From Candidatus Magasanikiibacteriota bacterium (GTDB lineage Bacteria; Patescibacteriota; Patescibacteriia; Magasanikbacterales; GWA2-37-8): a DNA stretch of 52,359 nucleotides. The position numbers and the translations under genes are program-made. The DNA lies in the NCBI GenBank assembly GCA_023246725.1, contig JAHFHV010000002.1:1-52359 (forward strand). The letters are read 5' to 3'. Below the pieces are notes generated by a model. It was given only the letters and a program-made list of their open reading frames with translations. It searched no databases and was not told where the DNA came from. This document shows, piece after piece, positions 18,432-22,339 of the stretch (position 1 is its first letter; each line of letters opens with the position of its first letter).

Positions 18432-21400
18432 TTATCTGCCATGGCAGTGTTTGAACTTCTTGGAACGTCCGTCCGCGTGAGTGGCGCCGCAATAACAAGG
18501 GTCATTGCGACCAATATCTTCGCCGGTTGGCGTTTTTGGTTTAGAGCTGGAATAAACAATTTTCGCGCCTCCGTCCGGATCCGCCGCTCCGCTCTGGGCT
18601 AAGCCAAATGACCCGCCGATATTGCTATCGCTCGCACCTTGCAGAATTAAATTGCGCTGTTGCATCACGCTTGGCGCCAAATCTATTCCCAGGCTCACTT
18701 TATAGATAGAGTACACCACCTCTTTTTGAATCAAACTTAAAAGTTCATTAAACATCCGGTAAGTTTCTTTTTTATACTCCACCAGCGGGTCCCGCTGCCC
18801 GTAGCCGCGCAGGCCAATGCCAGTGCGGAGGTAATCAATCGCCACCAAATGCTCCACCCACAAATTATCAATGGAGCGGAGCAGAATTTGTTTTTCAATT
18901 TCTAGCATCATCTCGGTGTGGGGCACTTTTTTTACCAGCAGCTCATCATATTTTTCCTGCGCGAGACTCGCGAGATACTCAATAATGGTTGTGCGCGCTT
19001 CGACGTCTTTGAGTTTGGCTTCGCCATTCTTGCCAAATGATAGGAGCGTATTTTTTTCCGCTTCGGATAGTGGAAAGATGGTAGTCACCGTTTCAGCGAC
19101 TTCCTTCATGTCCCAGTCGTGAGCGTCTTCGGCATTGGTATGGAATGATACGACCTGCTCAATTTCTTCGTTAATCATCTCAAACACCATGGCGCGGAGC
19201 GAGACAAGCGAGCCCTCACCCTGCCCTCTCCATTGCGATGGAGAGGGTTCACGCCCCCCCTCCACCACAGTGGAGGGGGTGGGGGGAGGATTTACCGATG
19301 GTGACATCACGGCAAACCCCGCCTTCTCTCTCGCAAACGCCTCCCCGCCTACGCGCAACGCTTCGCGTTCGCTTCGGTGGGCAAGTAAAATATTCCGCCG
19401 TTTTTCATAAATCACCTGACGATGGCGATTGATCACGTCGTCATATTCCAGCAAATGTTTACGGGTGTCAAAGTGAAATCCTTCCACTTTCTTTTGGGCG
19501 GATTCAATCAGCCGTGTAATGGTCCGCTGTTCAATCGGCATGTCATCAGGGACCTTGAGTGTGTTCATAACGCTTTTAATGCGCTCGCCGGCAAAAATCC
19601 GCATTAAATCATCATCCGTGGACAAATAAAACTGCGTTTCTCCCTGGTCGCCCTGGCGCGCCGCGCGGCCGCGGAGCTGATTATCAATCCGGCGCGATTC
19701 ATGCCGCTCGGTACCGAGGACGAAAAGCCCCCCAGCCTCCCGAGCTTTCCGAGCCTCCCCAGCATCCGGTGGATTTCCCCCTAAAATAATATCCACGCCG
19801 CGGCCCGCCATGTTGGTGGCCAAGGTGACCGCGCCCAGCCGGCCCGCTTGCGCGATAATCTCGCCTTCGCGTTCGTGGTTTTTAGCGTTTAAAATCTCGT
19901 GCTTAATTCCCTCTTGTTCCAAATACAAACTTAACCGCTCGTTTTTTTCTACGCTAATCGTGCCGATTAAAACCGGCTGGCCTTTCTCTTGGAGCGCGCG
20001 CACTTCTGTGGCAATAGCTTTGTTTTTGGCGTCCTCGGTTTTGTAAATTCGGTCCGGCCGGTCAAACCGCTGGTTGTGTTTGTGGGTGGGAATTACCACC
20101 ACTTCTAATTTATAAATTTTGCCAAACTCTTCGGCTTCGGTTACGGCCGTACCGGTCATGCCCGCGAGCTTGCGGTACATCCTAAAATAATTTTGAAAAG
20201 TAATGGTAGCCATGGTTTGGCTCTCGCGCTGAATGGGCACGTTTTCTTTGGCCTCAATGGCCTGATGCAAACCTTCCGAATAACGCCTCCCCGGCATTTT
20301 GCGACCGGTAAATTCGTCAACGATGATAACTTCGCCCTGTTCAATCACGTAATCTCGGTCGCGCTTAAACAGCGCCTTGGCGCGCAAGGCCTGCTCCACG
20401 TGGTGCACCATTGCCATGCCGCCTTCGGCGTAAATATTCGCCACCCCAAGGAACCCTTCCATTTTTTTAATCCCAACATCAGTAAGCGTGGCCGCGCGCA
20501 TTTTTTCATCAATATTATAATCTTCATTTTCCAGCAAGCGTTCCACCAGCTCCGCGTATTTGTAATACATCTCGGTGGCTTTTTCGGCCGGCGCGGAAAT
20601 AATTAACGGCGTCCGAGCCTCGTCAATCAAAATTGAGTCAACTTCATCCACAATGGCGTAATTGAGTCCGCGCTGACTCATGTCCTTTAAATCCCCCACC
20701 ATGTTATCGCGCAAATAATCAAAACCAAATTCATTATTCGTGCCATAGACGATATCACACTGGTACGCGTCCTGACGGCCGCATTTTTCCAAATGGTCGT
20801 ACTCAACTTTAAACACCGCCGCTTTTTCTTCGTCGTCTTTTGCTGTATTTTCGTTTTTGTCATCCCGAGCGAGGCTCGCGTCGACGATGGATCTCTGTCC
20901 GCTGTCATTCCGACCGATCGTCTCAGGGAGCGGAGGAATCTCGCCAATTGACAAGCGAGATCCCTCGGCTGCGCTCGGGATGACAAGTGATTGAGACGGA
21001 GATTCTTCCGGAGCCTGCACTGAGTGTAGCGAACGTGTCGTCGGAATGATAGATTGTTGTGCCTGATATTTATACGACACCAGCAAGTTCTGAATAATCC
21101 CCACACTCAACCCAAGGTAGTCATAAATCTGCCCCATCCATACCGCGTCGCGCTTGGCCAAATAATCATTCACGGTTACCACGTGCACCCCTTTGCCAGT
21201 GAGGGCGTTTAAATACGCCGGCAAGGTGGCCACCAGCGTCTTGCCCTCACCAGTCCTCATTTCCGAAATCGTGCCACGGTGCAGGGCCACGCCGCCAATC
21301 AGCTGGACATCAAAATGGCGCATGCCGGTTACGCGTTTGGAAGCTTCGCGCACCACGGCAAAGGCTTCGGGAAGAATATCATCAAGCGTTTCGCCTGTCT

Positions 21401-21557
21401 CTAAACGGTTTTTGAATTCCGGAGTTTTAGCTTTCAAATCAACATCAGAAAGAGCTTGAAGGACCGGCTCAAACGAATTAATTTTTTCAAGCAGAGGCTG
21501 AATTTCGGCAATGACTTTGGCGTTCGGATCGCCGAATAATTTGGTTAAAAAAGACAT
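18432..21557 (-). CDS. secA: preprotein translocase ATPase SecA carrying two repeat-derived in-frame insertions
   Basis: SecA motifs are present: MRTGEGKTLVATLP, YGTNNEFGFDYLRDNM, LAGMTGTA, NMAGRGVDI, LRGRAARQGD and the C-terminal Zn finger CYCG..KFKHCHG. It is 1041 aa and reads through repeats at 20859-21049 and 19213-19289 without stops. Confidence 0.9.
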   Translation of the reverse strand: MSFLTKLFGDPNAKVIAEIQPLLEKINSFEPVLQALSDVDLKAKTPEFKNRLETGETLDDILPEAFAVVREASKRVTGMRHFDVQLIGGVALHRGTISEMRTGEGKTLVATLPAYLNALTGKGVHVVTVNDYLAKRDAVWMGQIYDYLGLSVGIIQNLLVSYKYQAQQSIIPTTRSLHSVQAPEESPSQSLVIPSAAEGSRLSIGEIPPLPETIGRNDSGQRSIVDASLARDDKNENTAKDDEEKAAVFKVEYDHLEKCGRQDAYQCDIVYGTNNEFGFDYLRDNMVGDLKDMSQRGLNYAIVDEVDSILIDEARTPLIISAPAEKATEMYYKYAELVERLLENEDYNIDEKMRAATLTDVGIKKMEGFLGVANIYAEGGMAMVHHVEQALRAKALFKRDRDYVIEQGEVIIVDEFTGRKMPGRRYSEGLHQAIEAKENVPIQRESQTMATITFQNYFRMYRKLAGMTGTAVTEAEEFGKIYKLEVVVIPTHKHNQRFDRPDRIYKTEDAKNKAIATEVRALQEKGQPVLIGTISVEKNERLSLYLEQEGIKHEILNAKNHEREGEIIAQAGRLGAVTLATNMAGRGVDIILGGNPPDAGEARKAREAGGLFVLGTERHESRRIDNQLRGRAARQGDQGETQFYLSTDDDLMRIFAGERIKSVMNTLKVPDDMPIEQRTITRLIESAQKKVEGFHFDTRKHLLEYDDVINRHRQVIYEKRRNILLAHRSEREALRVGGEAFAREKAGFAVMSPSVNPPPTPSTVVEGGREPSPSQWRGQGEGSLVSLRAMVFEMINEEIEQVVSFHTNAEDAHDWDMKEVAETVTTIFPLSEAEKNTLLSFGKNGEAKLKDVEARTTIIEYLASLAQEKYDELLVKKVPHTEMMLEIEKQILLRSIDNLWVEHLVAIDYLRTGIGLRGYGQRDPLVEYKKETYRMFNELLSLIQKEVVYSIYKVSLGIDLAPSVMQQRNLILQGASDSNIGGSFGLAQSGAADPDGGAKIVYSSSKPKTPTGEDIGRNDPCYCGATHADGRSKKFKHCHGR
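19213..19289. repeat. Family 2 GC-rich double-hairpin element, in frame within secA
   Basis: It contains CCCTCTCC-attgcgat-GGAGAGGG and CCCCCTCCAC-caca-GTGGAGGGGG, flanked by CCTCACCC/GGGTGGGG. It is translated as ..VNPPPTPSTVVEGGREPSPSQWRGQGEGS... Confidence 0.75.
20859..21049. repeat. Family 1 palindromic element, nested L-L-R-R copy, in frame within secA
   Basis: Arms in order: GTCATCCCGA..GGATCTC, GTCATTCCGA..GGAGGAATCTC, GAGATCCCTC..TCGGGATGAC, GGAGATTCTTCC..TCGGAATGA. It is translated as ..SLVIPSAAEGSRLSIGEIPPLPETIGRNDSGQRSIVDASLARDD... Confidence 0.85.
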
Positions 21558-21732: not shown

Positions 21733-21774
21733 AAAAAATATCCCGCCCCGCAACTGCGGGGCGGGTTTTATTTT
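21733..21774. terminator. bidirectional Rho-independent terminator after vapC
   Basis: CCCGCCCCGC-aact-GCGGGGCGGG is a 10-bp GC stem flanked by an A-run and TTTTATTTT. The core CCCCGCAACTGCGGGG is identical to a segment inside repeat 290-465. Confidence 0.7.
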
Positions 21775-21788
21775 AAATATGACAGCAA

Positions 21789-22151
21789 CTATAAAATCTT
21801 TAATCCGTGAACCTTTTTAAATATTTTATCACTCGTTATTAAACGTCCGCCGTTTAATAGCGCAGTAGCGGCAATAACGGCATCCGGTGTTTTTAAATGA
21901 CAGTGACGGCGCACTTCAGCGGCTTTCTGGGCCACTTTTGAATCTACCGGCAAAATAAAAACCTCATTGAACCATAGAGTAAACCGCACAATCTCTTCCG
22001 GTGAAATATTGGGAAAACTTAATAGCTCAAGTTCGGTTATAGTTGAAATAACAAACTGTTCCCCATTTTGACGCTCAATTTCCACAAACTTACGGAGATT
22101 TTCATCGCCGTTAAAATAATAAATAACCGTGTTTGTGTCTAGGGTAATCAT
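21789..22151 (-). CDS. vapC: PIN-domain ribonuclease toxin VapC
   Basis: The product reads MITLDTNTVIYY...TELELL...PDAVIAATA..ITSD, giving the acidic PIN residues. The ATG at 22151 overlaps the upstream stop in an ATGA overlap. Confidence 0.8.
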   Translation of the reverse strand: MITLDTNTVIYYFNGDENLRKFVEIERQNGEQFVISTITELELLSFPNISPEEIVRFTLWFNEVFILPVDSKVAQKAAEVRRHCHLKTPDAVIAATALLNGGRLITSDKIFKKVHGLKIL

Positions 22152-22339
22152 ACCCACTCGCGCCGCATCTTTTTTTGGAAACGCAGTCCATCAATCTTTT
22201 TGTTTCGCCACATCCCTTGCACCGCCGCCCACCCATCCATTATCTGAAGACTGGCCAAGAGTTTAGACCTCACAGCTAAAACTTTCTTGGCTTCGGCAGG
22301 TGTTTGTTTTTTAATTGTTTTTGTTAAAACTAAATTCAT
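22148..22339 (-). CDS. putative VapB-type antitoxin (small protein coupled to vapC)
   Basis: A 63-aa ORF translationally coupled to vapC. I chose the ATG at 22339 over the TTG at 22360. I do not recognise a fold family. Confidence 0.5.
   Translation of the reverse strand: MNLVLTKTIKKQTPAEAKKVLAVRSKLLASLQIMDGWAAVQGMWRNKKIDGLRFQKKMRREWV

Follow-up and report, generated by a model that had tools for sequence, protein, structure and literature searches.

REPINs are inverted doublets that are mobilised by RAYT transposases and lie outside genes. Rickettsia palindromic elements (RPEs; Ogata et al. 2000, 2002, summarised in PMC10969869), with a length of ~150 bp, are dispersed palindromes that lie in frame in many unrelated genes, including essential ones. 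Here we describe two families of palindromic repeats with comparable behaviour in the secA gene of an ultra-small bacterium, Candidatus Magasanikbacteria, located on a DNA stretch of 52,359 nucleotides (positions 1 to 52,359 of contig JAHFHV010000002.1, assembly GCA_023246725.1; hereafter the window). The window is contig C5 of a genome (G000) with 1.16 Mb, 56 contigs, and a GC content of 47.5%, which is 99.35% complete with 1.59% contamination. An earlier note, made from this sequence alone, had proposed that the essential secA gene is read through two different repeat elements without a stop. Judged from the sequence, secA of G000 is very likely a functional, single-copy gene that carries in-frame palindromic, non-autonomous repeat inserts. 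The best reading of the inserts is that they are most probably translated as tolerated and harmless surface loops of SecA.

The secA open reading frame (ORF) encodes the 1041 residues given in the earlier note and contains the peptides quoted there. A Pfam search of its product identified SecA_DEAD, SecA_PP_bind, P-loop_SecA, and SecA_SW, with E-values from 1e-125 to 1e-40; the inserts split SecA_DEAD and SecA_SW into two stretches each, and the ORF list and the Pfam matches show that all SecA motifs and the reading frame are intact. The nearest SecA proteins are annotated as Candidatus Magasanikbacteria or Patescibacteria and consist of 913-999 residues, with 954 residues in the closest one, and matches to sequences in the PDB reach 1e-229. 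We considered that secA could be a decaying pseudogene, or that the inserts could be assembly artefacts from collapsed or mis-joined repeats, as might happen in a repeat-rich draft genome of 56 contigs. A SecA_DEAD search of the whole 99.35%-complete genome found one locus, as two halves flanking insert 1, and no second secA, uninterrupted or otherwise; the other match was a sub-threshold one in recG. In an independent ENA metagenome assembly (L003), secA has the same 3126 nt with both inserts present and only five substitutions, three of them at third codon positions. In addition, element A or the family-2 element (described below) occupies identical positions in relatives from other assemblies. 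The single secA and the agreement with L003 exclude both the pseudogene and the artefact as far as these analyses reach, and we regard either as extremely improbable. The earlier statement that frame and motifs are kept and that the gene is not an obvious pseudogene therefore holds.

The first insert is located in the nucleotide-binding domain 1 (NBD1), between the strand SYKY and the helix/strand KVEYDHLEKC, and sits on the tip of an extension that is specific to Patescibacteria. The spacing between the conserved GLSVG and YGTNNE motifs is 117 residues here and 20 in many bacterial SecA loci from metagenomes, close to the values of about 115 and about 15 residues in the earlier note. The length difference thus stands, but its attribution to the repeat does so only in part. 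The corresponding GLxVG-YGTNNE spacing is 48-62 residues in Patescibacteria relatives and 83-117 residues in repeat carriers, most of which show strongly negative fold z-scores. From these three spacing classes, about 60 of the 117 residues appear to be a lineage-wide Patescibacteria extension rather than repeat DNA, with the repeats sitting at its tip.

Two family-1 elements are nested at this site. The outer one, element A, starts after ...SYKYQAQQ at identical nucleotide boundaries in the window and in the two closest secA orthologues, namely L001, which belongs to the same genus and is identical to G001, and L002. The internal modules of element A share 93% identity with an intergenic copy at C49:18880-19020. 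The inner one, element B, is absent from L001 and L002 and brings a net gain of 81 nt in the window; together with indels of 15 and 6 nt, it accounts for the 34 residues gained at site 1 relative to these orthologues. Element B shares 91% identity over 87 nt with a copy at C53:11457-11541 and 100% identity over 31-33 nt with several further copies. The nested family-1 element of the earlier note is thus recovered as element B, whereas the outer element A, which is common to the relatives, is the older insertion. A search for strains with an empty site was made with an exact 30-nt pattern of element A, which matched nothing in metagenome contigs, and with related loci, which returned only SecA relatives at no more than 62% identity.

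The second insert is located where the long scaffold helix meets the helical wing domain, directly after the RQVIYEKRRNIL helix. The variable stretch is 62 residues long here, compared with a median of 23 in 120 relatives, and the DNA alignment shows 156 nt (52 residues) more than in L001, in agreement with the insertion of about 55 residues noted earlier after this helix. Two elements contribute to it. A 42-nt palindrome folds at -23 kcal/mol and gave no paralogue in a G000-wide search. The family-2 element forms a long hairpin inside a larger fold of -103 kcal/mol. The same family-2 doublet is found in the ~75% identical orthologue L004 (P0006) at the same position and in the same frame, including the unusual loop CCATCGCAATGG, while L002 retains a short remnant of it and L001 has none. 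This distribution suggests that the family-2 insertion took place long ago and that some lineages have since eroded or lost it. Apart from the remnant in L002, the two closest orthologues lack both element B and the site-2 material, and every length difference from them at the inserts is a multiple of three.

The same two loops are the preferred sites of insertion among the 120 SecA relatives (alignment with 921 core columns). Insertions of at least eight residues occur at site 1 in 28 sequences and at site 2 in 45 sequences. At the C-terminal linker, such insertions are found in 12 of the 120 sequences, none longer than 17 residues, and at the N-terminus in six, with up to 39 residues, which we take to be differences in start-codon calls. 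All other positions with such insertions are few and isolated, with one to three sequences each; one of them is a 14-residue insertion, LRRPEGRSPDLASG, after ...EMSQ (window residue ~295) in P0003/L002, a third NBD1 position seen in one of the 120 sequences. Many inserts of the relatives bear hallmark repeat peptides, such as VIPSE..., VILSEAKDL..., ...SLGMT, ...RDD/NDN, and SPLGRGRGG, and in each of P0046, P0086, and P0081, one and the same repeat-derived peptide is found at both SecA sites. In the case of P0046, VIPAPFFNGVNSAG...FRRDDS is present at site 1 and again at site 2. It seems, from these peptides, that each genome's own repeats reached the same two SecA loops. The insertion points shift by a few residues within the loop, a pattern more readily explained by a selection filter than by a strict target sequence. 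A similar situation exists in RecG: the elements in G001 lie at the same two RecG sites as in G000, as different variants and with extra inserts. The G001 protein (L028, G001:C55, recG) has 823 residues compared with 776 in G000, with in-frame inserts that are absent from G000, e.g., AGGVSLLRVRSPQPIGDATVLHPHYPPRGGIAKS.

Both families are dispersed throughout G000. Family 1 is a 68-90-nt element with the termini GTCATYCCGASCG...CGSTCGGRATGAC; we counted 259 termini in the genome and 23 in the shuffled sequence, and 58 complete elements, mostly 68-90 nt in length. Family 2 consists of hairpin units, CCCTCTCC-loop-GGAGAGGG-CAGGGAGAGG, mostly arranged as inverted doublets, with 81 units in the genome and none in the shuffled sequence. 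The predicted RNA folds reach -77 kcal/mol (z -3.3) at site 1 and -103 kcal/mol (z -4.7) at site 2, which bears out the very stable hairpins of the earlier note. The copy counts and the fold z-scores are both those of dispersed, RPE-like palindromic repeat families. With an in-gene copy defined as one within a stop-free ORF of at least 150 residues and with the frame open for 150 nt or more to either side, 79 of the 259 family-1 termini and 43 of the 83 family-2 units are located in genes, altogether in 77 ORFs. Seven of these genes were checked with Pfam, and in all of them the inserts are flanked by Pfam domains on both sides (Table 1), which shows in-frame insertion in multiple genes and supports the parallel with Rickettsia drawn in the earlier note. 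The in-gene copies use all stop-free frames and avoid the TGA-containing frame.

Fifty-six complete family-1 elements were examined by in-silico excision. Eighteen are read through, 34 are intergenic, and four give an ORF only upon excision; on inspection, these four apparent rescues, candidates for elements that split genes, were found to be explained by the fusion of adjacent genes. Hence, no gene among the 56 cases is convincingly broken by a family-1 element or in need of its removal.

Table 1. Coordinates and properties of the secA inserts, the genes with in-frame inserts, and the DUF559 loci. Positions without a contig name refer to the window.
Feature	Position	Strand	Description
secA coding sequence	18432..21557	minus	intact ORF, 1041 aa, four SecA Pfam domains, single secA locus in G000
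Site 1, NBD1 variable loop, aa 165-249	20811..21065	minus	85 aa, compared with a median of 29 in 120 relatives
Element A, left arm	20988..21052	minus	older family-1 element, GTCAT terminus mutated to ATCAT; boundaries identical in L001 and L002
Element B	20902..20987	minus	86-nt family-1 palindrome CTTGTCATCCCGAGCG...GGTCGGAATGACAG, translated ..LVIPSAAEGSRLSIGEIPPLPETIGRNDS..; in the apical loop of element A
Element A, right arm	20855..20901	minus	..CGGACAGAGATCC..CTCGCTCGGGATGACAAAA, translated ..GQRSIVDASLARDDK..; from DNA alignments
42-nt palindrome of site 2	19344..19385	minus	LAHRSEREALRVGG, right after the RQVIYEKRRNIL helix; absent from L001, L002, and L004
Family-2 element of site 2	19208..19292	minus	85-nt inverted doublet of two ~35-nt G/C-rich hairpin units, translated ..NPPPTPSTVVEGGREPSPSQWRGQGEG..
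RecG			both families; Pfam domains on either side
LigA			both families; Pfam domains on either side
UvrA			two family-1 copies; Pfam domains on either side
UvrD-like helicase			in-frame insert; Pfam domains on either side
Copper P-type ATPase			in-frame insert; Pfam domains on either side
Class I aminoacyl-tRNA synthetase			in-frame insert; Pfam domains on either side
RecJ			in-frame insert; Pfam domains on either side
DUF559 locus	C18:9898-11055	minus	with flanking hairpins, in frame inside a YrdC/Sua5-like ORF
DUF559 locus	C24:4332-4883		family-2-type hairpins on both sides
DUF559 locus	C13:10919-11407		family-2-type hairpins on both sides

The AlphaFold2 model of SecA, calculated with the 120-sequence alignment, has a mean pLDDT (predicted local distance difference test) of 71.9 and a pTM (predicted template modelling score) of 0.71. 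Compared with solved SecA structures, the TM-score normalised to the target is 0.7-0.84. A pLDDT below 50 is confined to residues 168-250 (site 1), 747-782 (site 2), and 968-1004 (the C-terminal linker) and to a handful of short loops. In the model, the segment encoded by the 42-nt insert prolongs the long scaffold helix. Thermotoga maritima SecA aligns on either side of each site, with 27 residues opposite 74 at site 1. Both inserts are therefore modelled as unstructured, low-confidence loops on a normal SecA fold, as is expected of tolerated disordered loops.

Several observations favour translation of the inserts. The in-gene copies and the decayed remnants keep the frame, and no gene requires excision. 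No intron, intein, or sense-strand terminator signal was detected: the Pfam search over the whole SecA protein gave the four SecA families only and no intein or Hint domain, neither insert has a terminator on the sense strand, and an Rfam scan of the inserts gave no family at threshold. The matches below threshold were miRNA-precursor look-alikes of 21-32 bits, compared with gathering scores of 66-100, which is what a generic hairpin would give. In addition, AlphaFold2 places the inserts as low-confidence loops on a normal fold, and the insert-encoded peptides, which include LSIGEIPPLPETIGR, SIVDASLAR, and EPSPSQWR, have a high content of Ser, Pro, Gly, Glu, and Arg. The same observations bear on the possibility that the inserts are removed after transcription, through RNA excision or processing at the hairpins, or skipped by translational bypass, so that the mature protein lacks them. 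The very stable hairpins at both inserts are its sole support. Under such removal, in-gene copies would not have to be stop-free or to have net lengths in multiples of three, yet all of them are and do. In addition, no gene in G000 needs excision, the decayed remnants in the relatives are still in frame, and no intron or other RNA family was matched by Rfam; we consider removal or bypass very unlikely.

With the inserts read as translated surface loops, we infer the following course of events from the distribution of the copies. Insertion would occur at the DNA level, frequently in or beside existing hairpins, which would explain the nesting of element B in element A. Selection would then purge the insertions that break the frame, bring a stop codon, or strike structured parts of the protein. 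The surviving inserts would accumulate in a few permissive loops, namely the tip of the NBD1 extension and the junction between the scaffold helix and the wing in SecA, and would be transcribed and translated as hydrophilic, disordered surface loops. Later, the in-gene inserts would decay, be deleted, or be overwritten by other copies.

Four points weigh against this interpretation. The in-gene copies were sought via open frames, so that frame-keeping is partly circular; since the copies were picked for sitting in open frames, their frame usage is not independent evidence either, and the absence of excision rescue is the sole independent evidence on frame-keeping. A low pLDDT is compatible with a disordered loop and proves neither surface exposure nor harmlessness. 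The hairpins, at -77 and -103 kcal/mol, could have effects of their own in the mRNA of an essential gene. Finally, the nucleotide conservation of element A is not predicted for a purely neutral translated loop. Between L001:3508-3603 and L002:3508-3603, 87 of 96 nt are identical (90.6%), compared with 74.9% in the rest of secA and 49.8% at third codon positions, and the identity peak falls exactly on element A (p ~9e-5). The best element A paralogue in G001 is 87% identical. At the same boundaries, the window holds a different module variant, the one resembling the intergenic C49 copy. Gene conversion among copies, re-insertion at a fixed site, or a constraint on the hairpin could each be sufficient to produce the peak.

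The identity peak also bears on the possibility that the inserts are kept for a function, whether at the DNA level, as targets of hairpin-specific nucleases with gene conversion or re-insertion at a fixed site, at the RNA level, through translation pausing or mRNA stability, or as loops co-opted for a function of SecA. The presence of a different module variant at identical boundaries in the window, the conserved position and frame of the family-2 element in the window and L004, and the occurrence of these hairpin types on the flanks of small GIY-YIG and DUF559 nuclease genes (see below) would agree with such retention. However, close relatives and most of the 120 homologues lack these inserts, the site-2 element is lost in L001 and reduced to a remnant in L002, and the insert sequences vary among lineages. 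Moreover, the differences between L001 and L002 within element A are not compensatory, and gene conversion towards the family consensus would yield conservation without any function for the host. Functional retention is thus unlikely.

A further proposal, which we put forward tentatively and hold to be possible rather than probable, is that the in-gene copies are maintained by a process at the DNA level, in which hairpin-specific nucleases encoded beside the repeats would cut the hairpins in single-stranded form and repair would draw on the sequence of further copies of the family. The candidates may be the small GIY-YIG proteins for family 1 and the DUF559 proteins for family 2. Under this proposal, secA, recG, and other essential genes may offer, in their permissive loops, fixed landing pads that are re-invaded or converted repeatedly. 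Such maintenance would explain the boundaries that are identical between species, the module swaps with intergenic copies, and a conservation above that of the surrounding codons.

G000 contains nine small GIY-YIG ORFs. Family-1 termini occur within 400 nt of three of these nine ORFs, compared with 16% of random 1-kb windows, and one ORF is flanked on both sides. The latter is located at C23:19180-19547, where two family-1 termini enclose a GIY-YIG ORF of 96 aa (19276-19491, minus strand). At C55:22154-22336, a similar GIY-YIG ORF adjoins a family-1 terminus. An NCBIfam search gave no name for the small GIY-YIG proteins of G000. All three DUF559 (PF04480) endonuclease loci of G000 have family-2-type hairpin units on both sides (Table 1); the DUF559 protein of the C24 locus is encoded at C24:4422-4739. 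The arrangement of hairpin, DUF559 nuclease, and hairpin may represent a cassette and, judged from this order, a candidate autonomous partner of family 2.

Two further features of the secA region were observed. The C-terminal zinc-binding motif of SecA at 18435-18497 (minus strand) of the window is CYCGATHADGRSKKFKHCHG, compared with the usual form CPCGSGKKFKKCHG; the insertion of six residues relative to the latter is common to P0002, P0004, and P0035. Upstream of secA, positions 21742-21765 form a perfect G/C hairpin of 10 bp with a T-run on each strand, which resembles a bidirectional terminator separating secA from the PIN-like gene at 21789-22157.

In-frame 'selfish' palindromes in essential genes are documented mainly in Rickettsia and are found here in a free-standing genome of the Candidate Phyla Radiation (CPR)/Patescibacteria, where copies are present in at least 77 ORFs within 1.16 Mb and several repeat families appear to be active at once. 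Within the library searched, we found no paper on in-frame palindromic repeats or miniature inverted-repeat transposable elements in Patescibacteria/CPR. The inserts provide a natural map of the SecA loops that can take up 30-60 additional residues, and this map is of use when tags or insertions are to be engineered. They also call for caution in annotation, as unusually long CPR proteins may just hold repeat DNA. In addition, G000 offers a tractable system for studying how hairpin repeats and neighbouring small nucleases spread.

Compared with known systems, the two families share features with several without coinciding with any of them. Like REPINs, both families are inverted doublets of a short hairpin unit with dozens to hundreds of copies; in contrast to the extragenic REPINs, 30-50% of the G000 copies lie inside ORFs, and a search for a RAYT/Y1_Tnp (PF01797) gene gave no match in G000, while control genomes matched. 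In the case of the NTS/dRS3 repeats of Neisseria (PMC11893778), the NTS sequence CGTCATTCCCGCGMAVGCGGGAATCYRG is resembled by the family-1 half-element GTCAT-(T)CCC...GGG(A)-ATCTCG, and the NTS-ssnA-NTS arrangement, in which SsnA is a GIY-YIG single-stranded DNA nuclease, is resembled by the GIY-YIG ORF between family-1 termini on C23. However, the published degenerate pattern of the Ssn-related motifs (SRM), HGTCWYN(0-2)YYVSBRHN(0-5)WNVSBRGN(0-2)RNCYNB, is not enriched, with four occurrences in G000 compared with 4-11 in mononucleotide shuffles and none in secA. The local stem of family 1 has only ~5 bp, the real pairing being that between the two halves of the inverted doublet, and intragenic in-frame copies are not described in PMC11893778 (Chenal et al. 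2025). Family 1 was tried as a member of the SRM/NTS-Ssn system and, since the pattern is not enriched, is treated as resembling it rather than belonging to it.

The closest likeness is that to RPEs, and it is drawn from behaviour alone. Like RPEs, the G000 repeats are dispersed palindromes in frame in many unrelated genes, essential ones included; the downstream frames persist, the protein fold is predicted to accommodate the inserts, and the genomes are small and reduced (PMC10969869). In contrast to RPEs, the G000 repeats are found in another phylum (Patescibacteria/CPR) and are shorter (68-90 nt compared with ~150 bp), one gene harbours at least two unrelated, jointly active families, the elements nest, and the same two SecA loops appear to have been invaded repeatedly across the lineage by each genome's own repeats. 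By this analogy, the secA inserts would represent RPE-type behaviour in a further phylum, and they could go beyond the RPE-type case in that the two loops are recurrent hot spots, that elements are exchanged at identical boundaries, and that nucleotide conservation is in excess.

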